Notes: generated by a model from the letters alone, not told the origin. DNA of 64,000 nucleotides from Clostridiales bacterium (GCA_031265685.1 JAISCI010000102.1:339-64338); one strand, 5' to 3'; numbered from the stretch's first letter, positions 3,059-58,933 are shown. Translations and numbers: made by a program.

Positions 3059-3462
3059 ATCGCGCCGATCCGCGCCGCCAGCCGATTCAGCTCATCTCCG
3101 GGGACCTCCGCCGGACGCCAGCCGAATCTGTAGCTGTCACCGTCGAAGCGCGGAACAACGTGCAGGTGATAATGCATGACGCTCTGGCCGACAGCGGCGC
3201 CATTATTCTGCAGAATGTTGATACCGACCGGCGCAAGCGCCTTGTCGAGCGCGGCGGCGACGCGCTTCGCCAGCGGGAGAACGCCCGCCGCCGTCTCGTC
3301 CGGCAGGTCCAGCAGGTTCTCGGCGTGTTCTTTCGGGATGACAAGCGCGTGGCCCGGATTGCCCGGAAATTTGTCCAAGATAACTACAAACTTGCCGTCC
3401 TCGTAGAGCTTGCGCGACGGGATCTCCCCGCGGATTATTTTGCAGAAAACGCAATCCCTCAT
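3055..3462 (-). CDS. HIT-family (histidine triad) protein
   Basis: 135 aa. CVFCKII..EIP and the HYHLHVVPR histidine triad. Confidence 0.9.
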   Translation of the reverse strand: MRDCVFCKIIRGEIPSRKLYEDGKFVVILDKFPGNPGHALVIPKEHAENLLDLPDETAAGVLPLAKRVAAALDKALAPVGINILQNNGAAVGQSVMHYHLHVVPRFDGDSYRFGWRPAEVPGDELNRLAARIGAI

Positions 3463-3492
3463 CAGATAAGCCCCTCCATCAAATAACCTCCG

Positions 3493-5292
3493 TCAGATAA
3501 GCGTTTCCATCTCGTCCACCAGCCCGGCGAACACCGACAACGCGGCGCGGATCGGCTCGGGCGAGGACATATCTACGCCCGCTCGCGCGAGCTGCGCTAT
3601 CGGGTAGTCCGACGACCCGCCGGCAAGAAATTCCAAGTATCGCGCCCGGGCGGATTCGCCCTCGGTAAGCAGCGCTCGCGCGATAGCGATAGCCGCCGAG
3701 TAGCCCGTGGCGTATTTATAAACATAGTACGCGTTGTAGAAATGCGGTATCCGCGCCCACTCGTCCGCGATACGCGCGTCGGTTTCGGCTCCGCCGCCGT
3801 AATACTTGCGGTTTAGCCCGGCGTACATCTCGGACAGGACGTCGGCGGTCAGAGGCTTGTCGTTTTGCGCGGCTTCGTGCGCCAGCAACTCGAATTCGGC
3901 GAACTGTGTCTGCCGGAATAGCGTTCCGCGGAACTCCTCGAGGTAGTAATTGATGAAATAGGCCCGTTTCGCCTTGTCGGAGGTGTCGGCGAGCAAGCGC
4001 TCGATCAGCAGCGCCTCGTTGACGGTGCTGGCGACTTCCGCGAGGAAGATCGGGTAGTCGGCGTAAGTGAACGGCTGGCGCCCCCACGTCAGCAGGCTGT
4101 GCATGGCGTGTCCCATCTCGTGCGCCAGCGTGAACATATCCTTCACGCGCCCCTCGTAGTTGAGGCTGACGAACGGGTGGCAGCCATACGCGCCCCACTG
4201 AAACGCGCCGGAGCGCTTGTTCTCGTTCTCGTAAACGTCGATCCAGCCGCCGTCCATACCGCGCCGCGTCTTCTCGGCGTAATCCGCGCCGAGCGGCTCA
4301 AGGCTCGCCAGAAACAGCCGCTTCGCTTCGTCATAACTGACGCGGGCGTCCGCTTCCGGCACGATCGGAACATACATGTCGTACATCTCAAGCTTATCGA
4401 CGCCCAGCGCTTTTTTGCGGATAGCCATATATTTATGCAGCGCGGGCAGGAAATCCCCCGCCGCCGCGATCAAATTGCGATACACCTCATCCGGCACGTT
4501 GTCGCCGGAGAGAGCCATCTCAAGCGCGGACGCGTAGCCGCGGGTTTCGGCGTAGAAATTATCGCCGGTAACGCTGGCCTGATACAATCCGGCGTATGTG
4601 TTGCGGAACCGCCCGATCGTATCGTACATCGCCTCGTAAGCGCGGCGGCGGACATCCCTGTCGCGCGACTCCATGAACGATGTGTAGTTGCCGAGCGTCA
4701 GCCGGGCGAGCGAGCCGTCCTCGCCGATTATCTCCGGGAATTTGGTGTCGGCTTCGTGGAGTATGTCGAAAACAGCTTCCGGAGTACGCGCCAAATCCGC
4801 CGTCCGCGCCAGAAGCGCCTCGCGCGGAGCGTCGAGGACATGCTCGCTCCTGCGCAGAAGGTCGTCAAGCAGATGCGCGTAGACCGTCAAGTCCGCGCTC
4901 TCCCGCGTGAAGCGCGCGATAGTGTCCTTGCCCAGCGCGATTATCTCGGGCGACAGGAAACTCTCCGCCGCCGCCAGCTTCGCGGCCATCGCGTCGGCGC
5001 GGTCGGCCATCGCTTTGTAGCGTTGGTTCCCTGTATCCTCGTAATAACGCAAGTGCGCGTATACATACAATCTCGTGAACCGCTCGCCGACCTCGTCGGA
5101 CAGGCGGAGCGCGGAGACGAGCCGCTCGGCGGACTCGCCCAGGCTGCCGGCGTATTCGGCGAACCGCGCCATATCCGCGGGCACCGCCGCGAAACCCCTC
5201 TCCCAGTCGCCGTCCGTCGCGAACAGATCCTCTGTCTTCCATTTATACCGCGGGTCGGCCTCCGCGCGTTTCGGTATTTCTTTCATCGGCAC
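3493..5292 (-). CDS. pepF: oligoendopeptidase F (M3B metallopeptidase)
   Basis: 599 aa with the HEMGHAMH zinc motif and PepF-like length. The track start at 5292 is GTG. The ATG two codons later (5286) is equally plausible. Confidence 0.9.
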   Translation of the reverse strand: MPMKEIPKRAEADPRYKWKTEDLFATDGDWERGFAAVPADMARFAEYAGSLGESAERLVSALRLSDEVGERFTRLYVYAHLRYYEDTGNQRYKAMADRADAMAAKLAAAESFLSPEIIALGKDTIARFTRESADLTVYAHLLDDLLRRSEHVLDAPREALLARTADLARTPEAVFDILHEADTKFPEIIGEDGSLARLTLGNYTSFMESRDRDVRRRAYEAMYDTIGRFRNTYAGLYQASVTGDNFYAETRGYASALEMALSGDNVPDEVYRNLIAAAGDFLPALHKYMAIRKKALGVDKLEMYDMYVPIVPEADARVSYDEAKRLFLASLEPLGADYAEKTRRGMDGGWIDVYENENKRSGAFQWGAYGCHPFVSLNYEGRVKDMFTLAHEMGHAMHSLLTWGRQPFTYADYPIFLAEVASTVNEALLIERLLADTSDKAKRAYFINYYLEEFRGTLFRQTQFAEFELLAHEAAQNDKPLTADVLSEMYAGLNRKYYGGGAETDARIADEWARIPHFYNAYYVYKYATGYSAAIAIARALLTEGESARARYLEFLAGGSSDYPIAQLARAGVDMSSPEPIRAALSVFAGLVDEMETLI

Positions 5293-5315
5293 ACATCCTG
5301 TCTATTGATTTAAGC

Positions 5316-5380
5316 GGGATTAGTATAAACTAATTCCATTCTAAAGGACGGATAAAAATCTAAATGGAATTAGTATAAAC
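5316..5380. repeat. family-A palindromic element, short form
   Basis: actaattccatt (5329-5340) pairs with aatggaattagt (5364-5375) around ggataaaaatct. There is also a partial direct copy of the terminus (attagtataaac occurs twice). Confidence 0.75.
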
Positions 5381-5406
5381 CCCATATGTTAGCATATGGG
5401 GTTTTC
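5378..5406 (-). terminator. rho-independent terminator (usable in both directions)
   Basis: aaccccatatg-ttag-catatggggtt hairpin with T/A runs on both sides, immediately downstream of the 5413 stop. Confidence 0.7.
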
Positions 5407-5412
5407 GGATAG

Positions 5413-6582
5413 TTATTCAGCGGCGGCCGCTTCCGTCGGTTCATCCGTAACCGCGGACTCGCTCGGGATCGCGCCTTCGGGTACGTCCAGCGGCGGCGTC
5501 GGAGAGGGCGACGGCTTGATCTCGGCCACGCCCGGTATCGAGGCGAACTGATAGGCGACGGGGTTTGACCAGACGTCGGCGCTTTCGCTCAGAGAACTCA
5601 GAACGCCGTCGAAAGCCTCGTCCCGCGTCTGCGTCTTGAACGCCTCGAGCTGCTCGGCGCGGAGAACGTCTTTGTCCGCCGGGATCTTCGACGCTATTTT
5701 AATGATATAATACCACGTTGTGCCGGATCCGTCCTCGTCCTCGACGGCGATAACGTCCGACGTCTCGCCGACGGCCAGTTCATAGGCCGCGTCGATGATC
5801 TCCTGGCTGGACCCGGCGTCGATGAGCTGTGGTTCCTCGTAGCCCATGCCCTCCTCGAATGTCTCCTGCTCCCTGATCAGCTGAACAAAGTCCGTACCGG
5901 CGTCAAGAAGCGCCTTCGCCTGATTCGCGGCGTCCTCGCTCCCCTCGAACCGGAGCATATAGACCTCGGTCTCGTCGAGAGTCTTCTCATTCTCGGTCAG
6001 GTAATTAGCCATATACTCCTCGAACCTGGCGTCGAAATCCGCGCCCGATACCTGCGTGTCCTTCAGCTTGACGACGTCCTCAAGCAGGGAGTAATATTTA
6101 TCGTCGAGCGCTTGCTGGCGAACCCACTTCTCGTTTATGCCGTATGTTTTCTTTTCCTCGTCGGTGAAATCCGCCATTCGCTCGGCCACCTCTTTGCCGA
6201 TCTCATCGTAATCGGAATCGACGAGCCGGATGCCTCGGCGCGCGGCTTCCTGACGAACCATCGCGGATGTGATAAGGCCGTTGAGCACGGAACTCTTGAC
6301 GGAATCAAGCGTCGCCGCGGACGTGCCGTCCTCGCCGTACCATACGTCCTCGCCGCCGTAAGCCTCGTACATCAGTTTCATGTTGACAAGCTGGAAATCA
6401 AAATACTGCCGGCTTACGCCCTCGCCGTTCACGGTCGCGATATTGGGCGACAGCGCGTACGCCGCGTTGACCCAGCCATTCCATCCAAGTACCACCAGGG
6501 CGCCAATAATGACGGCGATCGTTACAATCACGGTCGCCCAATCGGTTTTTCGCGCGGCTTGCTTCTTTGCCATTCCATCCAC
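5413..6582 (-). CDS. membrane-anchored SurA N-terminal-domain / PrsA-like foldase
   Basis: 389 aa. One N-terminal TM helix (WATVIVTIAVIIGALVVLGW), then a SurA-N-like chaperone region and a degenerate parvulin-like part. The start may instead be the ATG at 6573. Confidence 0.65.
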   Translation of the reverse strand: MDGMAKKQAARKTDWATVIVTIAVIIGALVVLGWNGWVNAAYALSPNIATVNGEGVSRQYFDFQLVNMKLMYEAYGGEDVWYGEDGTSAATLDSVKSSVLNGLITSAMVRQEAARRGIRLVDSDYDEIGKEVAERMADFTDEEKKTYGINEKWVRQQALDDKYYSLLEDVVKLKDTQVSGADFDARFEEYMANYLTENEKTLDETEVYMLRFEGSEDAANQAKALLDAGTDFVQLIREQETFEEGMGYEEPQLIDAGSSQEIIDAAYELAVGETSDVIAVEDEDGSGTTWYYIIKIASKIPADKDVLRAEQLEAFKTQTRDEAFDGVLSSLSESADVWSNPVAYQFASIPGVAEIKPSPSPTPPLDVPEGAIPSESAVTDEPTEAAAAE

Positions 6583-6649
6583 CCAATCCGTTTAATTTAT
6601 ACACCCGAATATTATACAACAGAACCCCGGCGTTTTTCAACAGAAATTT

Positions 6650-7042
6650 TTAGTCTCCGCCTTTTTGGGAAGGTTCGCGCCCGAACGTTATGATGATCGC
6701 GGCCGCCGCCGTGATCGCCGTAAACGGCACAGCGTAATAAAACACCGTGAGCTGGGGTACCATGCCGCGAAACGCCCCCGGCGACACCGTGTCCCAGATG
6801 AAGACTCCCACGGGCGACACCCAGAAACTTATCGGCAGCAGCGCGATCCTGTCCAGCCGGAACCGGGCGAAAATATACGCGTACAGCGCGGACAGCAGGT
6901 ATATGAACCCAAGCAGCGCCAGCGGCGTAACCGCCGGGCTGTTCGACGACATGCCCTCGAGGGCCGCCCCTACGACAAACATCAGGAACGCGAACACGGA
7001 CGGCGCCGCCAGAAACAACGCGCTCTTATACCATCTTTTCAT
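6650..7042 (-). CDS. small integral membrane protein (4 predicted TM helices)
   Basis: I trimmed the track ORF 6650..7333 to the ATG at 7042, which has an AGGGGGA RBS. MKRWYKSALFLAAPSVFAFLMFVV... The longer N-terminus is Arg-rich antisense junk overlapping tmcAL. Confidence 0.65.
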   Translation of the reverse strand: MKRWYKSALFLAAPSVFAFLMFVVGAALEGMSSNSPAVTPLALLGFIYLLSALYAYIFARFRLDRIALLPISFWVSPVGVFIWDTVSPGAFRGMVPQLTVFYYAVPFTAITAAAAIIITFGREPSQKGGD

Positions 7043-7055
7043 GACGATCCCCCTT

Positions 7056-7105
7056 ATACCAATCCCATTTAGATTTTTATCCGTCATTTGGAATGGAATT
7101 AGCAT
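7056..7105. repeat. family-A palindromic element, short form (inverted relative to 5316..5380)
   Basis: ataccaatcccatt tagatttttatccgtcattt ggaatggaattagcat is nearly identical to the reverse complement of the 5.3-kb copy. The tmcAL TAA stop (7099-7101) lies inside its terminus. Confidence 0.8.
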
Positions 7106-8283
7106 TGTCCCCGCTCCACGGCGACCCCTCGGTAAAACTCTTCTCTCCGGCGGCATCCGCCAGTATACATATAGTACAGATCCGACGCGCGCAGCTCGGT
7201 TTCGAGCGTATCCGAGAAACCGCGCCTCCCCACGACGACGGGAACGGTCGCCCGCCGCGACATCTCCCCGACAAGCCGCTCCGCTCCGCTCCGGAAGCCC
7301 AATACGCGGATGTAATCCGGCTCTCTGCGGCACTCGTCCGGACCGATCCCAATCAGCGCCCGCAGCATCGCCCGGCGCACCGCCCCCTCGGACTGTGTAC
7401 GGGATTTGGCGGCGCTCACGATACCGTCTGCGTCGCGCGCGAAAGCCGCCGCGCTGATACGCCTCTCCAGTCCGCCGTCCGGCTCGGACCTTGTCAGGGC
7501 GTAGCGTATCGCGTCCGAGAACAGCGACAGCCGCCCCAATACCTTCGCACCCCCGATCGCCGCGAAGCTCTCCGCGGGGACCATTTCCCGGTACTGGGCT
7601 CCGGACAGCGCCGCGCGGCGCACGTCCGACGCGCTAGCGAAATCCCCGCGCCTGAGGGCGAACGGCTCCAGTTGACGCGCGCAAAATTCGCTGACCCGCC
7701 GGATAGCTTTCAGGTACTCCACGCCCAGCGTGTCGTTGGGATGGCCTCGCGGGGGAAACCGGCTTCCGTGGAATTTGGCTTGACTCGAAGCGTTATCGAG
7801 TGAGCCGCGCGGTAACGCGGCGCAAAACTCATCGCAGACTTCTCCGTAGGCGGCGGCGTATGGTATGCCCTCGCGGATCAGCCGCCGGAGCTTCTCGGGT
7901 AAACCGGGGTCGGCTTCGGCCCGGAGCGCCGCGTCCGCCGCCTCGGCTATCGGCTCGATCGCGCCCGTCTCGCTGCCGAAAGCGAACACGTCGCAGACGC
8001 CCGTGGCCGCGACGACCGACACGGACCCCCGCGCGAAAAACTCGGCGGAAGAGAGCGCGTACCGCGCCGGAAGCTCCAGCAGAACGTCCGCGCCAAGGCG
8101 CAGCGCGGTCTGGGCGCGGCTGAACTTGTCGATAAGCGCCGGTTCTCCGCGCTGGACGAAATTGCCGCTCATAACCGCGACAAGCGGCTTGCCCGGGAAC
8201 CGGTCTCGGAGCGTATCCAGAAAATACTTGTGCCCGTTATGGAACGGATTGAACTCCGCCGCGAAGCCGACCGCGCCGGTCAT
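7099..8283 (-). CDS. tmcAL: tRNA(Met) cytidine acetate ligase (YlbM/UPF0348 nucleotidyltransferase)
   Basis: 394 aa. N-terminal EFNPFHNGHKYFL...VAVMSGNFVQRGEPA is the TmcAL signature. Confidence 0.85.
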   Translation of the reverse strand: MTGAVGFAAEFNPFHNGHKYFLDTLRDRFPGKPLVAVMSGNFVQRGEPALIDKFSRAQTALRLGADVLLELPARYALSSAEFFARGSVSVVAATGVCDVFAFGSETGAIEPIAEAADAALRAEADPGLPEKLRRLIREGIPYAAAYGEVCDEFCAALPRGSLDNASSQAKFHGSRFPPRGHPNDTLGVEYLKAIRRVSEFCARQLEPFALRRGDFASASDVRRAALSGAQYREMVPAESFAAIGGAKVLGRLSLFSDAIRYALTRSEPDGGLERRISAAAFARDADGIVSAAKSRTQSEGAVRRAMLRALIGIGPDECRREPDYIRVLGFRSGAERLVGEMSRRATVPVVVGRRGFSDTLETELRASDLYYMYTGGCRRREEFYRGVAVERGQC

Positions 8284-9158
8284 TCCGCGGCCAGCGCGGC
8301 TACCGCCCGCCCCTTGTCGCTGTCCGCGTCAAACCCGCCTATGGCGTCACTTCCCATCAGCAGTACCTGATATTGGGCGGATAAGAGCGTCGCCTCGCCC
8401 GTTTCGGGATCGAAAGCGCGGCGCGTGAGCAGCTTGAGGCAGCCGTCGGCGGAGTCCGACAAAGAGGGCAGGTCGCCGATGCCGGGCACGACCGCGGTCA
8501 GGTCGGCGCGCGTAACCGTATCCGGGAAGTCCACCCACCGCGACACGGCGTCCTCAAACAGAACGAGTTCGCCGCCGGCGTACTCGAACCGCTCGTATAT
8601 ATCCGCGCCCGCTTCCTCGCGGTAGGCTGATACGCTTTTGTTCTCGGCGTCAAAGTCGCAATGCAGGTAGGCCGAGAGCGCGGCGTCAAACTCGAAGACG
8701 CCACTGGCGTTCTTCCAGACATAATACGCGTAGTGCGGTTGGCTCGAGCTGATCATCCTGTCACACACGCGCAAATCGTTATAACCGTCGAAGTTTACGT
8801 CCAGCGCGCCCGCGTTGAACACCTCCGCCTCGATACGGTTTCCGTCCGCGGTCAGCGCCAGCAGGTCGATACGGTTGACGACGGAGCCGTCCGCCGCGGC
8901 GACGACCAGCGTGTCGAAGCCAAAACCTTTCCCGTCGGCGGGCGGTTCCGCGCCGTAAACGTATTCGCGGCCTGTCGCCGTCAGCGTGACCGTCCCGACG
9001 TCGCCGCCGACGGACATGGTTCTATCGACCGATACGGCGGACGCGTCGTCCGTGGGCGCCGGCGGTAAAGACGGCTCTGTCGCCGTCTCTTCCGGGGCGG
9101 GGCTAGCCGCGCAACCGGCCAGCGCCAGGCAAATGAACAATATTATCCACAACCGCAT
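8280..9158 (-). CDS. lipoprotein, function unknown
   Basis: 292 aa. Signal peptide plus lipobox MRLWIILFICLALAGC. Overlaps the tmcAL start by 4 nt. Confidence 0.7.
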   Translation of the reverse strand: MRLWIILFICLALAGCAASPAPEETATEPSLPPAPTDDASAVSVDRTMSVGGDVGTVTLTATGREYVYGAEPPADGKGFGFDTLVVAAADGSVVNRIDLLALTADGNRIEAEVFNAGALDVNFDGYNDLRVCDRMISSSQPHYAYYVWKNASGVFEFDAALSAYLHCDFDAENKSVSAYREEAGADIYERFEYAGGELVLFEDAVSRWVDFPDTVTRADLTAVVPGIGDLPSLSDSADGCLKLLTRRAFDPETGEATLLSAQYQVLLMGSDAIGGFDADSDKGRAVAALAAE

Positions 9159-9172
9159 ATATCGAGCCTCCG

Positions 9173-10117
9173 TTAATTCTCAATGGGATACGGCGTCGCG
9201 CCCATACGCTCCAGTATCTGGATCCAGCGCTCCGGACTGTCAACTTTCTCCATCTCGTCTTGGGTTATGCCGTGGTTTGCCGGGCTGTATTTGCTCGTGA
9301 TCGTCCTCCACACCTCGCCTTTCCAGCTCTCCATAACCGACGGAGCCGGAACGGTCGAATCATCTTCCACGAACACGAAGCGCCGCGCGGAGGGGTCATA
9401 TCTGTAGACCGCGCGGTCCGCGCCGCGTAGTACGGGTCTATAGTCAAGATTAAAATCCGTCCAGTATGTCACCACGACGGAGACACCGTCCGGTGAGTTG
9501 CCGAGCGACGAGCGCGACTGAATATCCATATCCGCCCAGATCGGCGTTTCCCCACCGCCCGACGCGAAGATTGTGGAGTAACCGCCGGACTCGTACTGCA
9601 ACGCCTGACTTCCGTCCACATTATACCATATCTCTCCGTCGACGCTGACTCCCGAGCCGTGCGCCAACTCTCCCTCAACGACAAGCCAGCACGCCTCGCC
9701 GTAGTCTCCGGAGCGAACGTCGTAGCGCGGCTTATCGCGCTCGCTTCGGATCACCAGACCGGACAGGTTCCAATCTTCGCCGTAGCCGCGCTCATATATA
9801 AGGAAGGTATACGCGTGGCCGCGAGCGATGAACACGACCGATACGTTCTTGCGCCAGAAAGCGTAGTCGCGCCGCTCCAATTCATGGAACGCCGCGCTCT
9901 CACCCAACTCCGCTTCCGGGAACCGCTTCGCGAATTCGTCCGTGAACTGGCCGGGGAAATAAAACAGCGCGTCCAGCCCGCCTATCGCCGACATGAGCGC
10001 ATCCATGACGCTGTCCGGCGTGCCGAGAATCGGAGGGGCGGAAGGTTCCGGAACCGGCGCGCAGCCAGCCAGCGCCAGACACAAAACGACGATTATCAGC
10101 GGACGCAACTCAGTCAC
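9173..10117 (-). CDS. lipoprotein, function unknown
   Basis: The track ORF reaches 10216, but its first 33 aa are encoded by a palindromic repeat. A GTG at 10117 gives VTELRPLIIVVLCLALAGC (signal peptide plus lipobox). The start is uncertain. Confidence 0.6.
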   Translation of the reverse strand: MTELRPLIIVVLCLALAGCAPVPEPSAPPILGTPDSVMDALMSAIGGLDALFYFPGQFTDEFAKRFPEAELGESAAFHELERRDYAFWRKNVSVVFIARGHAYTFLIYERGYGEDWNLSGLVIRSERDKPRYDVRSGDYGEACWLVVEGELAHGSGVSVDGEIWYNVDGSQALQYESGGYSTIFASGGGETPIWADMDIQSRSSLGNSPDGVSVVVTYWTDFNLDYRPVLRGADRAVYRYDPSARRFVFVEDDSTVPAPSVMESWKGEVWRTITSKYSPANHGITQDEMEKVDSPERWIQILERMGATPYPIEN

Positions 10118-10124
10118 CCCAACA

Positions 10125-10222
10125 AATTTTCGCGTAACAAAAGCTCGCTTCGCGTTATCGCGTGACGGAATTTTGCTTGGGCGAAGTTTGTTTAGGTTCA
10201 CGCGAAATTCGCCCAAGCAGAC
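10125..10222. repeat. family-B composite palindrome (GAATTTTGC / TTATCGCGTGA motifs)
   Basis: aaattttcgcgtaac...gttatcgcgtgac ggaattttgcttgggcgaa ... ttcacgcg aaa ttcgcccaagca. The inverted repeats are interleaved. Confidence 0.65.
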
Positions 10223-10489
10223 TTCCGTAGATGTTCAGTAATCATTATAATCCCTTTCGGTTCGGAACGCAACGCAAAATTCATTTATCTATTTTATAAA
10301 CGTGTTTCATTGCGGCCGCCTGGAATCCATATTATTAGTATAAAGCGGTCATAACGGAGGTTTTCCTATATATCGTCCTGTATTGAGGGGAGGTTCGCGG
10401 GTCGGGCTGGCGGAGTGAAATATTGTAAATTATATCTTTTCACAGCTTCGTTATCTCGAATATACTGCTTATTATGCCATCACCTTCCC

Positions 10490-10511
10490 CGCGCCGATTG
10501 GCGCGCTTTTT
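10490..10511 (+). terminator. possible orphan rho-independent terminator
   Basis: cgcgcc-gatt-ggcgcg stem followed by cTTTTT. I see no convincing upstream ORF. Confidence 0.35.
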
Positions 10512-10760
10512 AATTACAGCGTGTTTGGATGTATCTGGCAATACGCCGAGGTTTCCGCCTCCCTTTCCCTGTTAAGACTTGCTTCAATCTTGCAGATACT
10601 CCGAATCAAGTGAAGATAAAAACTTTTTAACAATCCCTTGCAGCCGCTTGAATATTGCGGGCTGTCTGTGGTAAGATGGTTTAAGACGGATTAGCGCCTA
10701 AAACCATTGCAATACCTGTTTGGGTATTTATCAATGACCTGAACACGAATTATTTTTGTT

Positions 10761-10770
10761 GGGGGGGGGG
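10761..10770 (+). repeat. G10 homopolymer occupying the Shine-Dalgarno position of the XRE gene
   Basis: ttgtt-GGGGGGGGGG-c-ATG. The run ends 1 nt before the ATG at 10772. Confidence 0.9.
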
Positions 10771-10771
10771 C

Positions 10772-11107
10772 ATGTCCATCAACAGCAGAATAATTGATGG
10801 GTTGGAATCCCGCAACCTGAAGCAAAGAGAACTCTGTGCGGCTATCGGCATAGCTGCGTCCGCTCTGAACAACTGGCTTAAGCTCGGAAGGAGTATTCCA
10901 TCCGAATATATAATCCCTATATCCAAATTTATAGAGGTGAACATCCACTGGATGCTGACCGGCGAAGGCGAGATGAGCCGGAACGCCGCCGCGCGGCCTG
11001 TTATTGATGCGCCATCCCCCGAAGAATCCGCCGAACTGCGCCGCTATTTCGACCGTCTGCCCGCTTTCAGCGTGGCAAAGGGTGGCTTATGCCCAATTGC
11101 TGGCTGA
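10772..11107 (+). CDS. XRE-family helix-turn-helix transcriptional regulator
   Basis: 111 aa. LKQRELCAAIGIAASALNNWLKLGRSIPSEYIIPISKFIEVNIHWMLTGEG is a phage-repressor-like HTH_3. Confidence 0.8.
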   Translation: MSINSRIIDGLESRNLKQRELCAAIGIAASALNNWLKLGRSIPSEYIIPISKFIEVNIHWMLTGEGEMSRNAAARPVIDAPSPEESAELRRYFDRLPAFSVAKGGLCPIAG

Positions 11108-11216
11108 TGAGGCCACGGAGTGAAGCGCGCCTCACCCGCGTTTCCGTTTTGGCTCCCAGTTGCTCGAAAGATACCGCTCGTTGCCTTTGCGCCCTTCGCG
11201 CCATTGTGCAGCAAGG

Positions 11217-11305
11217 GATTTTGCGTGACAGAATTTTGCGTAAATCGAAGCATTATCATGTGGTTCAAATGAAAATGCTATGCAAACTTCAGTCACGCAA
11301 ACTTC
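11217..11305. repeat. family-B long element (60-nt core 11231..11290) nested in a GATTTTGCGTGAC/GTCACGCAAACTTC stem
   Basis: gattttgcgtgac a [gaattttgcg taaatcgaagc attatcatg tggttcaaat gaaaatgc tat gcaaacttc] a gtcacgcaaacttc. Confidence 0.7.
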
Positions 11306-11394
11306 AGTGGCGCAAGCCCCACGCCGAGGCTTGCTGCGGTTATGGTCTTACCCACGCCGCCTTTTCCCATGTCAATAAAGATTGTTTTGCCCAT
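11293..11394 (-). pseudogene. ParA/MinD-type ATPase, N-terminal 29-33 codons only
   Basis: GGAGGA-N7-ATG, then MGKTIFIDMGKGGVGKTITAASLGVGLAPLKFA-stop. It has the deviant Walker A KGGVGKT. The reading frame runs into the repeat at 11217..11305, which supplies the last codons and the TGA. Confidence 0.6.
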
Positions 11395-11770
11395 TATGGT
11401 TTCCTCCTTCATTTTCGGGGCAAAACTTTTAGCGTTTCAGCCCCATTTTGGTTCGGGAATAGAATGGAAAAAGAATAATGCCAAACCCGCAAACCCTTGA
11501 TATTGCTGGGTTCTTGGATTTAGCGTTATTATGCCATAAGGGCGGCCAAAAAGCGCGGCGGTCAGGCAAGTGGCGGAAATGTCGAGCGGCAAATGCATCT
11601 GTCTGTATTGCGTAAACGGATTTATGTTGTCTATGAGAGCGTTCCGTATGTATGATTGTTAATCGCGCATATGGAACGTTTTTTCATTCATCCGACAGCG
11701 AAAAAAGTTGTTACTACGCGTAAAAATTTTTGAAGCTCTTGATAAACGTTTACGGCGACTCCCCATTAAC

Positions 11771-11799
11771 TTGACAAATTCCCGGAAACCATATAAGAT
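11771..11799 (+). promoter_or_regulatory. sigma-70-type promoter of the Rrf2-met cluster
   Basis: TTGACA (11771-76), 17 nt spacer, TAAGAT (11794-99), located 33 nt upstream of the ATG at 11832. Confidence 0.55.
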
Positions 11800-11831
11800 A
11801 TACAATAATATCGGCAAAAGGGGCGGTAAAT

Positions 11832-12272
11832 ATGCGTATTTCGGCAAAAGCGCGGTACGCGCTCGCCTGCGCGGTGACGTTGGCGCGAAAATTCGATACC
11901 GGGGATTTCGTCACTGCGGTCAGCTTGGCGGACGACCTCCAAATATCCAAGATATACTTGGAGCAGGTTTTCGCCCTTCTCAAACGCGCCGGGGTAGTCG
12001 TCTCCAGCAAGGGCGCCGGCGGCGGGTACCGGCTTTCGGATCGGCCTGCCGCGCTCACGGCTCTCGACGTGCTCTCCGCGACGGACGCTCTTCTGACCGA
12101 GAGCGCCGAGGAGACCGTGGCGCGGACGGCGCCGGGGATTGAGACCGTCATGCGCGGTATGGTGTTCGACGCGATGGACCGCGCGATCGCCGAGGCGTTA
12201 GGCGGCGTGACGCTGCAAGCGCTGGCGGAGACGGCCGCCGGGCTTGACGGCGAGTATATGTACTATTTATAG
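11832..12272 (+). CDS. Rrf2-family transcriptional regulator
   Basis: 146 aa. MRISAKARYALACAVTLA...SLADDLQISKIYLEQVFALLKRAGVVVSSKGAGGGYRL. Confidence 0.9.
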   Translation: MRISAKARYALACAVTLARKFDTGDFVTAVSLADDLQISKIYLEQVFALLKRAGVVVSSKGAGGGYRLSDRPAALTALDVLSATDALLTESAEETVARTAPGIETVMRGMVFDAMDRAIAEALGGVTLQALAETAAGLDGEYMYYL

Positions 12273-19237: not shown

Positions 19238-20556
19238 TATTTGAGAACATACTGCTCGCGATAGGATCTCTGCGCGCGAACAAGATGCGGTCGCTTCTGA
19301 CAATGCTGGGTATTATCATCGGCATAACGAGCGTAATCGCGATCATGACCGTCGGCAACTCGATGTCCGCGTCGGTGTCCGACCAGCTGTCCGTGTTCGG
19401 CACGGGCAATATATCCGTATATATCCAGGAGAAGAGCGAGGATACGGGCAATACGCCGCTGTTCATGCGATCCGCGACTCTTAGCGAATCGGGCGGGATA
19501 GTCCCCGATTCGAGAAGCTCGTCCAAAGCGCCCGATTCCGAGGATCTTATGACGCAGGATATGATAGACGCATTCGCGGAAGCCTTCCGCGGCAGGATCG
19601 ACGGCGTGAGCCAGGCGCGGCCCGTCGCGGATTCGGCTCAGGCGCGCGACGGAGAGCTGTACGCTAACGTCTCGGTATACGGCGTAAACGCGGCGTTCGA
19701 GAACGCCAACCGCATAGAACTTGTCGCCGGCAGGTTCATCAACGCTTCCGACGTGGCCGGAAACCGAGGCGTTGCGGTCGTTTCCGAAAAAGCGATTCAG
19801 AACATGTTCGCGGGAGAAACCCCCGAGGGGGCGCTCGGGCGGCAGCTCAAGACATACGCCAACGGCGGGATAAACGTATACACGATCGTCGGCGTATACA
19901 AATATACGCGTTCAGTATTGTCGGTCTCCTCCGTCGCCGAGAAGGACATACGCACAAATCTGTACATCCCGGTATCCGTAGCGATGATGGATTCGGTCGA
20001 GAAGAATTTCTCGTCCGTGACCGCCGTCGCGGCGAAAGGCGTGAACGTCGTGTCGCTGACGAGCGAGATCGAGAATTATTTCCGGTCGGTCTACGCGCGC
20101 AACGAGGACTTCGGCGTCGCGGCTAACAACATGGAGTCCGAGCTTTCCGCGATTACCAACGCGCTGGATCAAATCTCCATGGCGATAGCGCTGATCGCGG
20201 CCATATCGCTGCTGGTCGGCGGGATCGGCGTCATGAACATTATGCTGGTCTCCGTCACGGAGCGCACGCGGGAGATCGGCACGCGTAAGGCGCTGGGCGC
20301 GCGCAATTCCCACATCCGTCTGCAATTCGTCACCGAGGCGGCGATAATCGCCGTAATCGGCGGGGTAATCGGGATTATCCTGGGCGTTTCCGGCGGAACG
20401 GCGCTGGTGTCGTTCCTCGACGTGCCCATGATAATCGACCCGCTGACCGTGTTCGGCACGATTGTTTTCTCGATGTGCATCGGGATATTCTTTGGATACT
20501 ATCCCGCGAACAAGGCCGCGAAGCTGAACCCGATCGACGCGCTGAGGTATGAGTGA
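19234..20556 (+). CDS. ABC transporter permease (MacB/FtsX family)
   Basis: 440 aa. N-terminal TM helix, large periplasmic domain, and a C-terminal FtsX 3-TM bundle ([15 protein letters not shown]). Confidence 0.9.
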
Positions 20557-20728
20557 TACCAATTCCATTTTGATTTGTGGATAAAAAATTTTCAAGCTTC
20601 AGCGCGTCCGCGCGGTTCTGAATTTTGCTTGGTTCGAAGCATTATCGCGTGAACCAAGCGATAATGCGACGCAAAATTCTAGGCGCGGGTCGTTTAGACT
20701 GAAAATTTTTATCCAATGGAATTAGTAT
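20556..20728. repeat. family-A palindromic element, full length, carrying a 60-nt family-B core (20620..20679)
   Basis: ataccaattccatt / ggataaaaaattttcaag / GC-rich core plus B core / ctgaaaatttttatcc / aatggaattagtat. It starts on the A of the permease TGA stop. Confidence 0.85.
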
Positions 20729-20797: not shown

Positions 20798-20886
20798 AAA
20801 AGCCGCGCAACGGAAGTTTGCGTGGTTTGGAGCATTATTGATTGAACCACTCAATAATGCGGAGCAAACTTCCGTTGCGCGGCTTT
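20798..20886 (-). terminator. 23-bp-stem hairpin enclosing a 60-nt family-B core (20813..20872); probable divIVA terminator
   Basis: aaagccgcgcaacggaagtttgc ... gcaaacttccgttgcgcggcttt. On the minus strand it is followed by a T run and begins 4 nt after the divIVA stop. Confidence 0.65.
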
Positions 20887-23436: not shown

Positions 23437-23745
23437 CTAATCCAGATGCTCGATTATTTTTACCGCCAGAAAATAAAACGGGTACATAAGCAGCGCGGCG
23501 GCGGCGGAGACGAGCGTGAAGCCGACCGGAAACATAACCACGTTGATCAAGCCGCCGATTATCCCGTCAAAGGTCGAGTTGCCGATCAGCCCCTGCGTCG
23601 ATTCGCCGAGGGAACCGAGAGTGAGCTGCATAAGGCCGAAGAACACCCCCGCCGGAAACCCCGACATAACAAACACCTTGACATAGTCCTTGAAGCCGAG
23701 CTTGACGAACCCCAAGACCTTACGCATAGCCGCGCTCCCAGTCAT
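23437..23745 (-). CDS. small membrane protein (2-3 TM helices)
   Basis: 102 aa. The track ATG at 23745 abuts the repeat terminus (ggaattagtATG). An alternative start is Met7 (23727). The stop is 11 nt upstream of the next gene's start. Confidence 0.6.
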   Translation of the reverse strand: MTGSAAMRKVLGFVKLGFKDYVKVFVMSGFPAGVFFGLMQLTLGSLGESTQGLIGNSTFDGIIGGLINVVMFPVGFTLVSAAAALLMYPFYFLAVKIIEHLD

Positions 23746-23853
23746 ACTAATTCCATTAGATTTGCGCCGAATATTTTTTCGAGCTTGCGTGTCCGCAAGG
23801 TTTCAATCGCGGAACCAGAAAATATTCGGCGTCTTTTAGAATGGAATCAGTAT
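23744..23853. repeat. family-A palindromic element
   Basis: atactaattccatt / ccgaatattttttcgag / GC-rich core / agaaaatattcgg / agaatggaatcagtat. Confidence 0.85.
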
Positions 23854-23966
23854 CAAAAGATACTACATTATTAATCGGCTGAACAGCCGTCTGATTTGAT
23901 ACAAAAAGAGCATACACTATCGTTATAAGAAAATCAATTAAAAACCGTAGCAAAAAAGCAGGCCTT

Positions 23967-24059
23967 ATACTAATCTCCGTCTAATTGAGAGAAAAGATTT
24001 TTCAAGACGATCCGCGCGGGCTTGAAAAATCTTTTCATACCTATAAACGGAGATTAGTA
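23967..24059. repeat. family-A palindromic element (CTCCGT terminus variant)
   Basis: atactaatctccgt / gaaaagatttttcaag / acgatccgcgcggg / cttgaaaaatcttttc / acggagattagta. Confidence 0.85.
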
Positions 24060-24070: not shown

Positions 24071-26140
24071 CTATAACCGGATCAGCTCCGCTATGCTCAT
24101 AGCAATACTATCCAATATATCATAAAACTTATCATTCAGATCGTAATACTTCCCGTCGGGCTTCGTCAGCGGGTCGTAGGATTCGATCGACTCGCGATCC
24201 TTCCGCGCGACTACGTAGCACGTCACGCCGTTTTCGCGCAACATATCGCGGATATCCTCGACCGAGCGGCCCGAGCGCGTCGGCACGTGCGGCGGCGCGT
24301 CGGTTATCAGTATAAATATCGCGCGTTCGCCCGGGGCGCTCTCCGACGAGCGCAGCAGACCGACCGCCGTCTCCAGCGCATCCAGCGACGATTCGGGGAT
24401 GTCGCCGCCGTATGTGCGCGGGATGTTTTTCACCTGTTTCTGGAACTTTTCCACGTCCGACGTGAAGCTGTATACCGAGGGCTTCTCCTTCTCGTACAAG
24501 TCGCCGAAACCGATCAGCCCCAGACTGGCGCCCGCTCCCTTGCCGCGCACTATCTCCGAGAACTCGATCGCGCGCTCCTTGACGCCGTTAATATATGTGT
24601 CCATGCTGCCCGTCGTGTCGATGACGAACACGATCCTGACGCTGCCGATGCCGGACGGTCGGCGCGGCGGCGCGGACGTCTTCGAGCGGTCAAACATCGC
24701 CCGTTCGCTCCGCCCGGTGGAAAGGTCGCGCACGTATACCTCGAACAGGTTGTCGGCGGAGATGGCGTAGGTTATCTCCAACTGCGTCGTGCCGCGCAGA
24801 CCGCCGAACTCGACGCTGCCGATATACTTGCGCTCGGCCTCGGCGCCCGCCGCCCACTGGTACACGTCCACGCTGACGGTCGTAGCCCCGGACATAGACG
24901 CGAAGTTGGAGTCCGAAAAACTGGACGGGATCTGGCTGCCCATCGGGATGATCGGTATCAGCGACTTCTCGCGCGTTGCGATATTGGTTACGGCCTCGGT
25001 GCCGAATATCTGCCGCGTTATCTGACCGACGGACACCTTGCGCTCGGGCAGGTGGATCAGGTAATTGTATATCGCCGCGCCCATCGCGACGCTCTTCGCC
25101 GGGTCGGTCGCGCGGTAGGGATCCTTCAAAAGCCCGGCCACCATACGTCTCACCATCGGGATGAGCGTCGATCCGCCGACGAGTATAACCTTCGATATAT
25201 CGTCCGCGTCGCGCCCCGAACGCTTAAGCGCTTCCGTGACAATCTCTCGGCTGCGGTCGATATACTTGCGTATCATGGACTCGAATTCCTCGCGGGTTAT
25301 CTCCAGCGAAAGGCTCTTCGGCTCGCCGCCCACGATGACGAGCGGGCTTACGCGCACCACGGCCTTGCTCGTTCCGGAAAGCTTCTTCTTCGTCTCCTCG
25401 GCGACTGCCTTTAGTTTCTGGAGGACGCGCCGCGCGTCGGCTCCGGGCAGATCGCTTAAGTCGATGCCTTCGGATTCCATGAACTTCGTCTTGAAGTGGC
25501 GTATCAGCTCGGAATCGAAATCGTCGCCGCCCAGTTCCATATCTCCGACGTCGGACAGTTCCTGGAAAATTTCCTGTCCGCTTTCGTCCTTCGATACTTT
25601 GAGCACGCACGCGTCGAACGTTCCGCCGCCAAGATCGTAAACGAGTAACGTCTGCGCCAGCCCCTGCCGGTAGCCATACTCGATCGCGGCGGCCAGCGGC
25701 TCGGAAAGCAGGTGGACGGTCGCGAACCCTGCCAGCAGCCCCGCCTGCCGCGTCGCGTATATCTGTCGGTCGTTGAAATACGCCGGGTGCGTTATAACTA
25801 CCTCGCCGAAGGCCTCGCCGGACGCTTCCTCGGCGGCGGCCTTGAGCCGGCGCAGTATGTCCGCGCTAACTTCCTCGGGGGTTTTGCGGACCGCTCCCAG
25901 TTCCAGCGCCTCGCCCGAACCCATCCGCCGCTTGACGGATATGACCGTCGATTCGGGGTAGATGATCGCGCCGGACTTCGCCTCCTCGCCGACGATAACG
26001 GATCCGTCCTCGGCGTAATGGACGACGGACGGAAGTATCTCCGAGCCGTCGATGGGAACGGCGGCGACGCCGTCCGTCCGGTCGCTGTAGATAACGGCGC
26101 ACGAGTTTGTCGTGCCCAGGTCGATGCCCAAGTATCCCAT
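24071..26140 (-). CDS. Hsp70-family ATPase fused to a C-terminal von Willebrand factor A domain
   Basis: I trimmed the track ORF to the ATG at 26140 (AGGAGA RBS), giving 689 aa. Motifs are LGIDLGTTNSCAV, VYDLGGGTFDACVL and ILVGGSTLIPMV. An SBD-beta is present (VSVDVYQW...LEITYAISADNLFEVYVRD) but no helical lid. The vWA domain has a MIDAS motif (VFVIDTTGSM ... ILITDAPPH). Confidence 0.85.
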   Translation of the reverse strand: MGYLGIDLGTTNSCAVIYSDRTDGVAAVPIDGSEILPSVVHYAEDGSVIVGEEAKSGAIIYPESTVISVKRRMGSGEALELGAVRKTPEEVSADILRRLKAAAEEASGEAFGEVVITHPAYFNDRQIYATRQAGLLAGFATVHLLSEPLAAAIEYGYRQGLAQTLLVYDLGGGTFDACVLKVSKDESGQEIFQELSDVGDMELGGDDFDSELIRHFKTKFMESEGIDLSDLPGADARRVLQKLKAVAEETKKKLSGTSKAVVRVSPLVIVGGEPKSLSLEITREEFESMIRKYIDRSREIVTEALKRSGRDADDISKVILVGGSTLIPMVRRMVAGLLKDPYRATDPAKSVAMGAAIYNYLIHLPERKVSVGQITRQIFGTEAVTNIATREKSLIPIIPMGSQIPSSFSDSNFASMSGATTVSVDVYQWAAGAEAERKYIGSVEFGGLRGTTQLEITYAISADNLFEVYVRDLSTGRSERAMFDRSKTSAPPRRPSGIGSVRIVFVIDTTGSMDTYINGVKERAIEFSEIVRGKGAGASLGLIGFGDLYEKEKPSVYSFTSDVEKFQKQVKNIPRTYGGDIPESSLDALETAVGLLRSSESAPGERAIFILITDAPPHVPTRSGRSVEDIRDMLRENGVTCYVVARKDRESIESYDPLTKPDGKYYDLNDKFYDILDSIAMSIAELIRL

Positions 26141-26167
26141 ACCAATTCTCCTGTCTGTTAAAGCTCC

Positions 26168-26338
26168 GCGCCAATCTCCATTTAAGAATATAGAAAAGAT
26201 TTTCAAGTCCGCGCCTGAAGCAGGGTAATTTTCGCGTGATGAATTTTGCGCGGCTTACGCAAAATTCCATCACGCGAAAATGCGATCGAAACTCGTCCAT
26301 ACAAAAATTTACTTCCGCCAATCTAACGGAGATCAGTA
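26168..26338. repeat. family-A-like composite element with a long family-B hairpin (26227..26280)
   Basis: ccaatctccattt / gaaaagattttcaag / ... aattttcgcgtgatgaattttgcg cggctta cgcaaaattccatcacgcgaaaa ... / acggagatcagtat. It fills the whole gap between two Hsp70 genes. Confidence 0.8.
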
Positions 26339-27934
26339 TTACACCCGCGTCTTCTTCCCCCGCTGGGGCGTGAAGTTTCGCTTATAGCCGCCGCCGGCGT
26401 CCTCAACCATGCCGGAGACTACCCCGCCCTCCTCGGCGGCGGACAGCGTGATTCGCAGCCTTGTCCCGCCGCTGGGGCGCGGAGGAAGTCCCGTTACCTC
26501 TATGTCGCCGATCAGCCGGCAGTCCTCCACGGGATCGTCCCGGTTGATCCGCTCCAGAACGCGCAGATCGAAACGCGTCATGTCTTCGGGGCGGCTTCCG
26601 GAGAGCGTGAACACGGCGTCTTTGCGCGCCAGAGCGTAAGGCGTGCCGCGCCGGATCAGCGTATAGAAAACCTTTTTCGCGCCGTTTGTCACCTCCAGCC
26701 CGATGTCGTGCGGAACGCTGCCGGAGAACGCAACGGCGCGGCGCTCGGCGGAGAACTCCCGCCCGGCGAGAAGCCCCATCTTCATCGCCGCGTAGTACGC
26801 CGCGCCGACCGATATGTCCAGCGCGGGGCGCTCGGACTGATATATCTTCGATTCGTCGCCGAACACGCCGTTCAACATATCCCGCACCCAGGGCGCGGCC
26901 GACGATCCGCCCTCCAACAGCACGCGGCTGATGTCCCCGGGAGCCAGAGCGCCCTTGTACGCGCCGCGCAGCGCCTTTTGCGTAAGCTGACGCGTCTTCT
27001 CGATAAACGCCGCCGCCAGTCCCTCATAGCGCTCGCGCGTCAGGTTCTCGATAAACGGCGGTATCATAAACGTGAACGGCACGCGGAACGACTTCGCGCC
27101 CGAGAGCCGTTCCTTCGCCTCGCGCGCGCGGATCTCCACTTCGGCGCGGTTTTCCGGGACGATCGATTCGCGGGTCTGGCCGGTTTTCGCCTCTATCCAG
27201 TCGTAGCACTGTTCGGTAAGAATAGCGTCGAGCGCGTCTCCGCCGTGGGCCGCGTCTCCGCCCTCGGATATGACCGTCAGCCGCGTCAGTCCCGGCGGTT
27301 CCTCCGTCACGCTGAAAACGGTTATATCGAGCGTGCCGCCGCCGAAGTCGAACACCAGCACGCGCTCGCCGTCCTCAAGCTCGCGCTTGAAATTCATAGC
27401 GAGCGCGGCGGCCTTCGGCTCCTCGATCAGGCAGATCAGGCCGCCGCCCAGCCCCGCCAGCTCGCAGGCGCGGATTGTCGCCTTCTTCGCGGCGTCGTCG
27501 AACCCATAAGGCACTGATACGACCAGTCCGGCTATCTCGGCTTTCGGGTTTATCGCTCGCGCGCGCGACGCCAGTTCTTCCAATATCTTCGCGGATATTT
27601 CCTCCGGCGCGTAGTCCTTGCCGCCCAGCCGGAACGTCTTGTCCGTGCCCATATACCGCTTCGCCGAACGCACCGTGGAATCGGGGTACAGCTTTATCGA
27701 GCGGTAGGCCTCCTCGCCGACGACCCACTCGCCGCCGTCGCGCCACTGCACAACGGAAGGCAGCGGTATCTTGCCGAACCCGTCCGAAACGTCGATGGTT
27801 TCGGGCGCGCCGGACGACGGCGAATAATAACTGACGACGGAGTTGGTCGTGCCTAAGTCTATGCCGAGCACGAACCAGTCCTCGGGCAGGGACCCGCGCC
27901 GGTCTATATCTTTTTTGCAATCTTCCCACTTCAT
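26339..27934 (-). CDS. Hsp70-family ATPase, lidless paralogue
   Basis: 531 aa. LGIDLGTTNSVVSYY, VFDFGGGTLDITVF, LLEGGSSAAPWV. It ends just after the beta-sandwich SBD. Confidence 0.85.
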   Translation of the reverse strand: MKWEDCKKDIDRRGSLPEDWFVLGIDLGTTNSVVSYYSPSSGAPETIDVSDGFGKIPLPSVVQWRDGGEWVVGEEAYRSIKLYPDSTVRSAKRYMGTDKTFRLGGKDYAPEEISAKILEELASRARAINPKAEIAGLVVSVPYGFDDAAKKATIRACELAGLGGGLICLIEEPKAAALAMNFKRELEDGERVLVFDFGGGTLDITVFSVTEEPPGLTRLTVISEGGDAAHGGDALDAILTEQCYDWIEAKTGQTRESIVPENRAEVEIRAREAKERLSGAKSFRVPFTFMIPPFIENLTRERYEGLAAAFIEKTRQLTQKALRGAYKGALAPGDISRVLLEGGSSAAPWVRDMLNGVFGDESKIYQSERPALDISVGAAYYAAMKMGLLAGREFSAERRAVAFSGSVPHDIGLEVTNGAKKVFYTLIRRGTPYALARKDAVFTLSGSRPEDMTRFDLRVLERINRDDPVEDCRLIGDIEVTGLPPRPSGGTRLRITLSAAEEGGVVSGMVEDAGGGYKRNFTPQRGKKTRV

Positions 27935-38004: not shown

Positions 38005-38496
38005 TTATTGGATACTATTCTCTATTCTTAAAATATTATATATTTTCTTGCCTTCAATAACCCGCGCCGCCGCCGTTACGATTCGGCCGTTCACCGCCGC
38101 CCATTCCGCCACTCTATCCCAGTCGCGGTGCGGCACGAGCACGATCCCACTGAACGCCCGCGCAGTCTCGGGAGCGGCTTCCAGAATTTCAATAATATTC
38201 AGTCCGCCCATTCCCGCGATTACACATTCCTCGAACTCTCCCGGAGCCACGGCGCGAAGCCCGTTGCCCAAGCGCGTCTCCACGACGCCGCCAAGGCTCC
38301 ACGCGTCAATCTTGCGCCGCGCCGCGGCGAGCGGCCCGGGGGCTATGTCGCAGGCCGCCGCGCGGTCGATCCGCCCTGTCGCGGCCAACCATACCGGCAG
38401 CATAGCGTGATCGCAGCCGACGTCGCACATCGACCGCGCACGCAGCATGTCCGCGACCGCGCGCAGCCGCGGCGCCAGCGCGAAGAGCCGCTTCAT
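38005..38496 (-). CDS. trmK: tRNA (adenine(22)-N1)-methyltransferase, short form
   Basis: I trimmed the track ORF to the ATG at 38496, giving 163 aa. DVGCDHAMLPVWL...AAACDIAPGPL...IAGMGG. Only the methyltransferase domain is present. The start codon directly abuts a repeat terminus (ggagattagtATG). Confidence 0.75.
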   Translation of the reverse strand: MKRLFALAPRLRAVADMLRARSMCDVGCDHAMLPVWLAATGRIDRAAACDIAPGPLAAARRKIDAWSLGGVVETRLGNGLRAVAPGEFEECVIAGMGGLNIIEILEAAPETARAFSGIVLVPHRDWDRVAEWAAVNGRIVTAAARVIEGKKIYNILRIENSIQ

Positions 38497-38636
38497 ACTA
38501 ATCTCCACACCAAAGGATACCGAATATTTTTTCGATCCGCGACTGATAAGTTTGCGTGGTTCATGCAAACTTCAGAAGCCGCGCGGATGCGCAAGCTCGA
38601 AAAAATATTCGGCACAAATCTAAGTGGAATTAGTAT
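38495..38636. repeat. family-A palindromic element with an internal AAGTTTGC-N9-GCAAACTT hairpin (38548..38572)
   Basis: atactaatctccac / ccgaatattttttcga / core / tcgaaaaaatattcgg / aagtggaattagtat. It fits exactly between the stop of 38639..40885 and the trmK ATG. Confidence 0.85.
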
Positions 38637-38638
38637 CA

Positions 38639-51368: not shown

Positions 51369-51475
51369 ACTAATTCCATTCTAAAGTTTCTGAAATGTTT
51401 CAGCCCGCGCGTGAATCGCCGAGCGGACACGAAGTATCTTGAAAAAATTTCAGCGCTGTCTAAGTGGAATTAGTA
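51367..51475. repeat. family-A palindromic element
   Basis: atactaattccatt / tctgaaatgtttcag / GC core / ttgaaaaaatttcag / aagtggaattagtac. The coaE reading frame ends inside it (…SGTNST-stop). Confidence 0.85.
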
Positions 51476-58872: not shown

Positions 58873-58897
58873 GCGATCACCCCAATCTCAGTAAAAC

Positions 58898-58933
58898 ATT
58901 ATAAAGTATACAACTTTTGCGGAAGGAACGCAA
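58898..58933 (-). promoter_or_regulatory. candidate promoter of the leu/ilv operon
   Basis: On the minus strand: TTGCGT, 17 nt spacer, TATACT, overlapping a second TATAAT. It lies 25-35 nt upstream of the leuC ATG. Confidence 0.4.

Follow-up and report, generated by a model that had tools for sequence, protein, structure and literature searches.

We analysed a 64,000-nucleotide stretch of a Clostridiales bacterium genome (GCA_031265685.1 JAISCI010000102.1:339-64338; hereafter the window) and find that its layered intergenic palindromes, which we call family A, probably (roughly 80%) constitute a previously undescribed family of hairpin-forming MITEs (miniature transposable elements with inverted repeats) that target the trinucleotide TNA. 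The terminal 14-mer ATACTAATTCCATT, allowing up to two mismatches, matches the window 11 times against 0.12 expected from dinucleotide shuffles, an excess of about 90-fold, and 0 of 100 such shuffles gave 11 matches. A wider scan yields eight canonical copies, one relative with a variant terminal inverted repeat (TIR; 62832-62994) and one solo end, i.e., nine copies plus a solo end in 64 kb, or roughly one per 7 kb. Copy length ranges from 47 to 171 bp; none has coding capacity, the open reading frames (ORFs) that cross copies being read-through from flanking genes. The members, with their flanking triplets and folding z-scores where available, are as follows.

5316-5325, no strand assigned: solo terminal-repeat remnant GGGATTAGTA, adjoining the TAA duplication of the 5329-5375 copy.
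5329-5375, minus strand: short copy, 47 nt, apparent internal deletion, with one terminal repeat minus its first T; flanks TAA 5326-5328 and TAA 5376-5378; z = -4.65.
7057-7104, plus strand: short copy, 48 nt; flanks TTA 7054-7056 and TTG 7105-7107.
20557-20727, plus strand: long copy, 171 nt, with a family-B hairpin (see below) in its apex (~20620-20679); flanks TGA and TGA; z = -6.4.
23745-23852, plus strand: copy of 108 nt; flanks TCA 23742-23744 and TCA 23853-23855; z = -6.6.
23968-24059, minus strand: copy of 92 nt with the type-2 terminal repeat TACTAATCTCCGT; flanks TTA and CCG, unequal; z = -9.1.
26168-26338, minus strand: copy of 171 nt; type-2 repeat, left end degenerate, family-B hairpin nested within; right flank TTA 26339-26341.
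38496-38635, minus strand: copy of 140 nt; flanks TCA 38493-38495 and TCA 38636-38638; z = -7.1.
51368-51475, minus strand: copy of 108 nt; left flank TCA 51365-51367, right flank CCG (unequal); z = -4.1.
62832-62994, minus strand: relative of 163 nt with terminal repeat TACTGTTTCAG, a TTAGA-type subterminal motif and a nested family-B hairpin; flanks TGA 62829-62831 and TGA 62995-62997.

The original prediction had listed at least nine copies of one architecture, and most of that list stands, since paired inverted termini are present in the eight canonical copies and in the 62832-62994 relative. The latter had been given as a variant at 62831-62995 and is a genuine relative with a terminal repeat and a TGA/TGA duplication of its own. 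The interval 5316-5380, taken for one short copy, resolves into the copy at 5329-5375 and the separate solo end at 5316-5325. The second proposed variant, 63233-63394, is not a member, having neither TAC ends nor TNA flanks; it is a separate 162-nt palindrome with 36-nt arms (AGGGCGTGTTTGAAAACTAGCCCC...). Logan contigs of SRR14710922 are identical to the window over the stretches they cover, and because one independent contig, L119, matches window positions 1631-10801 at 100% (blastn), the copies at 5329 and 7057 are not assembly artefacts.

The triplets that flank the elements point to their mode of insertion. Matching TNA flanks were counted in 8 of the 10 copies with two recognisable ends, where chance would give 1/64 per copy, and identical triplets are found at 5329 (TAA), 20557 (TGA), 23745 (TCA), 38496 (TCA) and 62832 (TGA), as well as in two copies from outside the window, L122 (TCA) and L123 (TAA); the 7057 flanks, TTA and TTG, are a near match at two of three positions. 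Flank matches of TNA form among ten pairs, at 1/64 each, are not a product of chance, and the flanks beyond TNA are not conserved. At the level of sequence comparison, insertion at T-N-A with duplication of the triplet is thus shown.

The copies outside the window came from a metagenome scan with a 21-nt end pattern, which returned ten loci. Two of these, L122 (Ga0123353_10848346) and L123 (Ga0082212_10304542), come from unrelated metagenomes and hold complete 101-nt elements, so that the family is not unique to the window; uniqueness was one of the outcomes named as refuting the original prediction, and none of those outcomes was observed. The 13-nt ends, the subterminal segment TTAGATTT and, at the other end, CCTTTAGA (or CCTTAAAA) are common to these two and the copies in the window, and both have inner stems of 25-26 bp that are entirely unlike the window stems and almost perfectly paired (z = -12 and -18). 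Loci L124-L130 each hold a single end, with no partner end within the locus and no transposase, and are chance matches. Among the matches listed in a genome-collection scan with the bare 14-mer, at least 118, all were chance singletons; scans of viral contigs gave chance matches or none, and BLAST against plasmid and phage sequences gave no match. The window PepF is identical (100%) to MDR1210058.1, and the locus of its nearest relative, 57% identical, carries no family-A elements.

The element in L122 supplies a direct view of an insertion, as it interrupts the ORF of an IS4-family transposase. When the reading frame is joined, intact 417-aa relatives align across the junction, the best of them lying on contig L142, whose DNA is 87-91% identical to L122 on both flanks and uninterrupted at the insertion point (L142 position 1334 corresponds to L122rc 96, and L142 position 1336 to L122rc 202). 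There L142 reads ...CGCTTGTT-T-AAGCTT and L122 reads CGCTTGT-TCA-TACTAATTCC...GGAATTAGTA-TCA-AACTT, a net insertion of 104 nt made up of the 101-nt element TAC...GTA and a 3-nt direct repeat at a T-N-A site. The empty site and the target-site duplications together prove insertion. They also revise the ATAC/GTAT termini proposed originally, the outer A and T being part of the 3-bp TNA duplication and the true ends being TAC...GTA.

The L123 element offers a weak second case of insertion. With the copy and one TAA excised, the two stretches join as ...IGLTYKK(K)TLHPVEQQRED..., in different frames across an A8 run; the joined fragment is short and frame-shifted and has no Pfam match, so that Pfam did not confirm the IS630-type transposase that we take its motif to represent. 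Within L123 1-395, a minus-strand ORF seems to have been split twice, the MITE (TAA/TAA) coming first and an IS5-family insertion sequence (IS; transposase 396-1448) second, and L123 would thus be a pile-up of nested insertions.

Internally, the copies share a layered design. The outermost layer is a TIR of about 13 bp, TACTAATTCCATT / AATGGAATTAGTA, with the type-2 repeat as its variant; the second is subterminal, conserved and asymmetric, with TTAGATTT near one end facing CCTTTAGA near the other, and is unpaired in every copy (alignment columns 15-20); the third is an inner stem, A/T-rich, 16-26 bp long and different from one subfamily to another; and the fourth is a GC-rich apex. Inner-arm sequences in the window are confined to family-A copies. 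Each copy folds as one long hairpin (z-scores between -3.4 and -18). When nine copies are aligned and their variable centre is trimmed (34 stem pairs), 25 of the 34 pairs have changed on both sides, and 82.5% of cells are paired. Shuffling the partners lowers this figure to 65%, with 0 of 500 shuffles as high as the alignment itself, and sliding them by 1-3 columns lowers it to 46% or less.

The arm-by-arm covariation described in the original prediction is therefore real, as are two further points of that description: the short forms near 5.3 and 7.1 kb, reduced to the termini and one arm, do retain TTTTTATCC at 5329 and 7057, and four family-A copies do carry a family-B hairpin within their apical loop. 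The short forms are best read as internal deletions, with TTTTTATCC representing one arm of a long form like 20557. The statement that arms differ between copies holds between subfamilies, whereas 23745 and 38496 have the same inner arms.

Because near-perfect copies lie in dead transposase genes, the fold-back is a property of the element itself, and since different hosts keep perfect but different stems, it seems to characterise the copies that are competent for transposition. It would probably aid in bringing the two ends of a very short element together (end synapsis), or might be kept by intrastrand template switching, i.e., quasipalindrome correction; in the order of effects that we infer, any effect on mRNA is predicted to be secondary. 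A stronger version of this reading, in which the fold-back is mechanistically required and the end design is also adaptive for occupying stop and stop/start sites, is rather unlikely as a whole. In it, the transposase may act on an extruded or single-stranded hairpin and may recognise the 13-bp terminal stem together with the asymmetric 7x7 internal loop TTAGATTT / CCTTTAGA, a requirement that would explain why lineages of different hosts have perfect but different inner stems. The ends themselves, TNA-TAC-TAA... and ...GGA(G)ATTAGTA-TNA, may regenerate a stop, a Shine-Dalgarno-like GGAG and an ATG without polar damage.

The same folds can be read as RNA. Family A would then be primarily a cis-acting structured RNA in polycistronic mRNAs, its mobility incidental or absent, serving as RNase III or stability hairpins or in translation coupling; we consider this reading improbable. 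Strong compensatory covariation and very stable folds fit it, as do the position of most copies in co-transcribed gaps, the GGAG and ATG that the terminal repeat gives to a trmK-like gene at 38496, and a sense fold that is better than the antisense fold in 8 of 9 copies. However, the sense bias is background: it is found in 68% of random genic windows (mean -3.5 kcal/mol), at which rate the chance of at least 8 of 9 sense-favoured copies is about 0.16, and as genome composition skew gives the same bias, sense-strand stability is not evidence of RNA selection. The best hairpins, in L122 and L123, lie inside disrupted transposase genes, where an operon function is implausible, copies stand in both orientations with respect to transcription (6 to 3), and no promoter or terminator signal rises above chance. 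No Rfam family matched, the window giving only 3 tRNAs, and L122 and L123 hit only generic miRNA-precursor hairpins at about 30 bits against thresholds of 90-195. With near-perfect palindromes also present in dead transposase genes, covariation alone cannot decide an RNA role, and the duplications and the empty site prove insertion.

Mobility of another kind, in which family A is a REP/BIME-like or IS200/IS605-type element moved as a single-stranded hairpin by an HUH Y1 transposase (RAYT or TnpA), is very improbable. The whole element is indeed a hairpin and its two ends are asymmetric, but such systems make no target duplication and insert beside a fixed tetra- or pentanucleotide, where family A has a TNA duplication with a variable middle base, 13-bp TIRs and no GTAG-type head. 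The RAYT or IS200/IS605 TnpA partner suggested in the original prediction does not fit these features, and no Y1 transposase occurs in the window, where the ORFs scanned beside the copies and in two low-GC regions encode housekeeping proteins, a CI-type repressor, BclA_C and IS1182. Of the MITE/REP-like mobile fold-back first envisaged, the MITE part is borne out by the TIRs, TNA duplications, empty site and copies elsewhere, and the REP-like flavour is not.

Least probable of all is an IS630/Tc1-type MITE that duplicates TA, as Correia, RUP and ERIC elements do, with CTAATTCC...GGAATTAG as the element: TA stands at both ends (TA-CTAATT...AATTAG-TA) and size and hairpin resemble Correia and ERIC (PMC3184786), but it would require a junction TA in the L142 empty site GTTTAAGC and the reconstructed L122 site GTTCAAAC, and because the site is TCA in the L122 lineage (TTA at the homologous L142 site), the TA dinucleotides are carried by the element and the duplicated unit includes the variable base outside them. 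An integron attC site was also rejected, as the TAC...GTA termini lack the GTTRRRY core (RYYYAAC / GTTRRRY) and the flanking genes are housekeeping genes.

For the TNA-targeting MITE, the mobilising enzyme can be approached by analogy. The IS1031 subgroup of the IS5 family prefers 5'-TNA-3' and makes exclusively a 3-bp direct repeat (PMC12016507), and the related PIF/Harbinger elements of eukaryotes target TWA (PMC4482050). Family A is most likely comparable to a non-autonomous partner of an IS1031-type (IS5-family) transposase, and the enzyme supplied in trans would be a DDE transposase of this type. The insertion sequences that adjoin copies (IS1182 in the window, IS4 in L122/L142, IS5 DUF772 in L123) were rejected as partners, having unlike ends and other duplication sizes, and contigs with relatives of the IS1182 transposase (68-73% identical) carry neither family A nor family B. 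The terminal sequence has no match in the searchable literature. As judged originally, family A is not Correia, RUP, ERIC or REP, which differ in duplication type (TA or none vs. TNA).

Several observations weigh against this assignment. The flanks are unequal at 23968 and 51368, and 26168 has a degenerate end. The direct DNA-level empty site is a single one and belongs to a paralogue, 91% identical, from a different sample, and the sequence fits a 3-bp duplication with TAC ends and a 1-bp duplication with ATAC ends equally well. Covariation would also fit a selected RNA. The copy count covers the 64-kb window. No autonomous element with family-A TIRs was found in the window, the ten metagenome loci or the viral, plasmid and phage collections; nor was an IS1031-like transposase, the only transposase of the window being a degraded IS1182-family gene with unrelated ends. 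The published IS1031-type end that we compared (ISLrh, GAACCTGTCTAGTATCT, GAACCTG...) is unlike TACTAATTCC. With no partner found and the ISLrh end unlike TAC..., membership in the IS1031 lineage is not established; the element behaves like a member.

The TNA preference has consequences for where family A sits among genes. Since TGA and TAA are TNA sites, copies fall exactly on stop codons or stop/start overlaps, and as such insertions left both genes intact, they were tolerated and now form whole intergenic gaps. In this arrangement, the ...GTA end followed by TGA would recreate an ATG, and the TAC-TAA start of the element would carry an in-frame back-up stop. Thus, the left TGA (20554-20556) of the 20557 copy is the stop codon of a MacB-like permease gene, after which the pre-insertion site is predicted to have read ...GAGTGAAAATC. 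The right flank of the 26168 copy (26339-26341, TTA) is the TAA stop of the minus-strand upstream Hsp70-like gene. At 7057, the duplication after the nucleotidyltransferase gene reads CAA and the stop comes two codons on, as a TAA (7099-7101) in the terminal repeat (TGC TAA); at 51368, coaE extends 13 nt into the element and stops at a TAG (51460-51462) in the subterminal region. Most copies do lie in co-transcribed gaps, in agreement with the earlier placement between co-directional genes of operons, with the exception of 20557-20727, which lies between convergent genes.

The fullest case is 38496-38635, which reads ...TTC TGA / TGA / TAC...GTA / TGA AGC GG on the minus strand. Without the element and one of the TGA triplets, the sequence becomes TTCTGATGAAGCGG, where the stop of the csaB-like gene overlaps the ATG of the trmK-like gene (TGATG), so that on this reconstruction the insertion target is a former TGATGA at which the csaB-like gene's stop (38639-38641) overlapped the start of the trmK-like gene. 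The csaB-like stop has been kept, and the present trmK-like start (38496-38494) consists of the last A of the element and the TG of the duplication, with a GGAG 7 nt upstream in the variant terminal repeat; in the reading from 38496, the TrmK and methyltransferase domains of Pfam begin at residue 7. A general rule by which the terminus supplies a Shine-Dalgarno sequence plus ATG was rejected, being mostly the arithmetic of ...GTA plus TGA combined with the first-ATG rule of the ORF lister: for SLT, the gene caller's start lies two codons later than the terminus ATG, and the 102-aa ORF at 23745 has a better start six codons downstream, with a GGGAG ribosome-binding site. The trmK-like gene looks like the only real case.

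The remaining observations concern the context of these copies. The window has a G+C content of about 62% and carries Clostridia-like genes (PepF, a PrsA-like protein, a PRK13670 nucleotidyltransferase and CsaB). Two low-GC islands, 10200-12200 and 58000-64000 (47-55% vs. ~62%), abound in family-B repeats; the CI-type repressor (10772-11107) is encoded in the first, and a protein that ends in a BclA C-terminal domain (62122-62820) in the second. The IS1182-family gene (59901-61481) is interrupted by four family-B hairpins of 27 nt (GAATTTTGCKTG...CAMGCAAAATTC), at 60281-60307, 60487-60513, 60669-60695 and 60818-60844, and removing the peptides that they encode leaves a 479-aa protein that aligns over its full length (100%) with intact 484-aa transposases at 73% identity; because the transposase is thereby restored, family B is an insertion element in its own right. 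Family-B hairpins in family-A apical loops lie at 20620-20680, 26228-26281, 38553-38585 and ~62880-62950, and a third hairpin (GCATTAT...ATAATGC) sits inside family B at 20620-20680 and 20799-20886. This three-deep layering of palindromes suggests that hairpin apices serve as insertion sites.

Perfect 15-nt inverted repeats, CAGACCGCGCAAAAA / TTTTTGCGCGGTCTG, at 59811-59825 and 61585-61599 flank the degraded IS1182-like gene and are probably the ends of that element, whose position is immediately downstream of a tRNA Pro-Met-Gln cluster (59333-59586). Two Hsp70/DnaK-like paralogues, 24071-26206 and 26339-27934, are adjacent and divergent, parted only by a family-A copy; both score well below the DnaK and HscA cut-offs, and the protein of the former has a weak, below-cut-off VWA-domain match in its C-terminal part. 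Beside the 5329-5375 copy, between the prsA-like gene and pepF, a terminator-like hairpin CCCATATG-TTAG-CATATGGG followed by GTTTT occupies 5381-5405.

Family A accounts for the conspicuous intergenic repeats of this uncultured Clostridiales genome, and it yields a rule for annotation, namely that starts at a ...GTA/TGA boundary and C-terminal tails running into TAC-TAA are artefacts or consequences of insertion. It is also a clean example of a TNA preference steering a transposon to stop codons and overlapping stop/start junctions, where insertion uncouples genes without destroying them. If the hairpin should prove necessary for mobilisation, or operon expression to be modulated, the family would make a useful model; for now, it adds one more family to the bacterial MITEs. 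Its more unusual traits are that its TNA target places it on stop and start codons, that it has a conserved asymmetric loop, and that it is layered with the insertional family B.

Among known systems, REP/BIME sequences with their RAYT resemble family A as abundant extragenic palindromes in operon gaps and differ in having 20-40-nt units, neither TIRs nor target duplication, and dependence on a Y1 HUH enzyme. In its general type, family A most resembles bacterial MITEs such as Correia, ERIC, RUP and Chunjie (PMC3184786), whose defining duplications of TA or 9 bp it lacks. ERIC/IRU and RUP are imperfect palindromes (~107-127 bp) in transcribed intergenic regions whose compensatory changes keep the hairpin, but they have TA flanks (PMC3184786), belong to Enterobacteriaceae and pneumococci, and share no sequence similarity with family A. 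Chunjie of Geobacter uraniireducens parallels family A in that the MITE is A+T-rich while its host genome is G+C-rich, its predicted RNA hairpin is very stable, and several copies overlap protein genes (PMC3184786). It differs in size (178-235 bp), 21-bp repeats and 9-bp direct repeats. Chunjie has reportedly inserted into an operon without breaking it. The Correia elements of Neisseria (CREE/NEMIS) are, like family A, MITEs of roughly 100-160 bp with TIRs that are dense, intergenic and co-transcribed with neighbours, and that occur in long and internally deleted short forms (PMC3184786). They have a TA duplication, 26-bp repeats, an IHF site and outward promoters, whereas family A has a TNA duplication, 13-bp repeats, no promoter signal above chance and arms that are far more self-complementary. 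To our knowledge, neither a whole-element hairpin nor a conserved asymmetric subterminal loop is a feature of the IS1031 subgroup of IS5 or of the PIF-Harbinger (Tourist-like) MITEs. The family-A end TACTAATTCC... is also unlike the published GAACCTG... of the IS1031 group, and no transposase-bearing parent of family A was found. What family A shares with these two is the T-N-A target and 3-bp duplication (PMC12016507; TWA in PIF/Harbinger, PMC4482050), short TIRs, a preference for A/T-rich sites and small non-coding derivatives.

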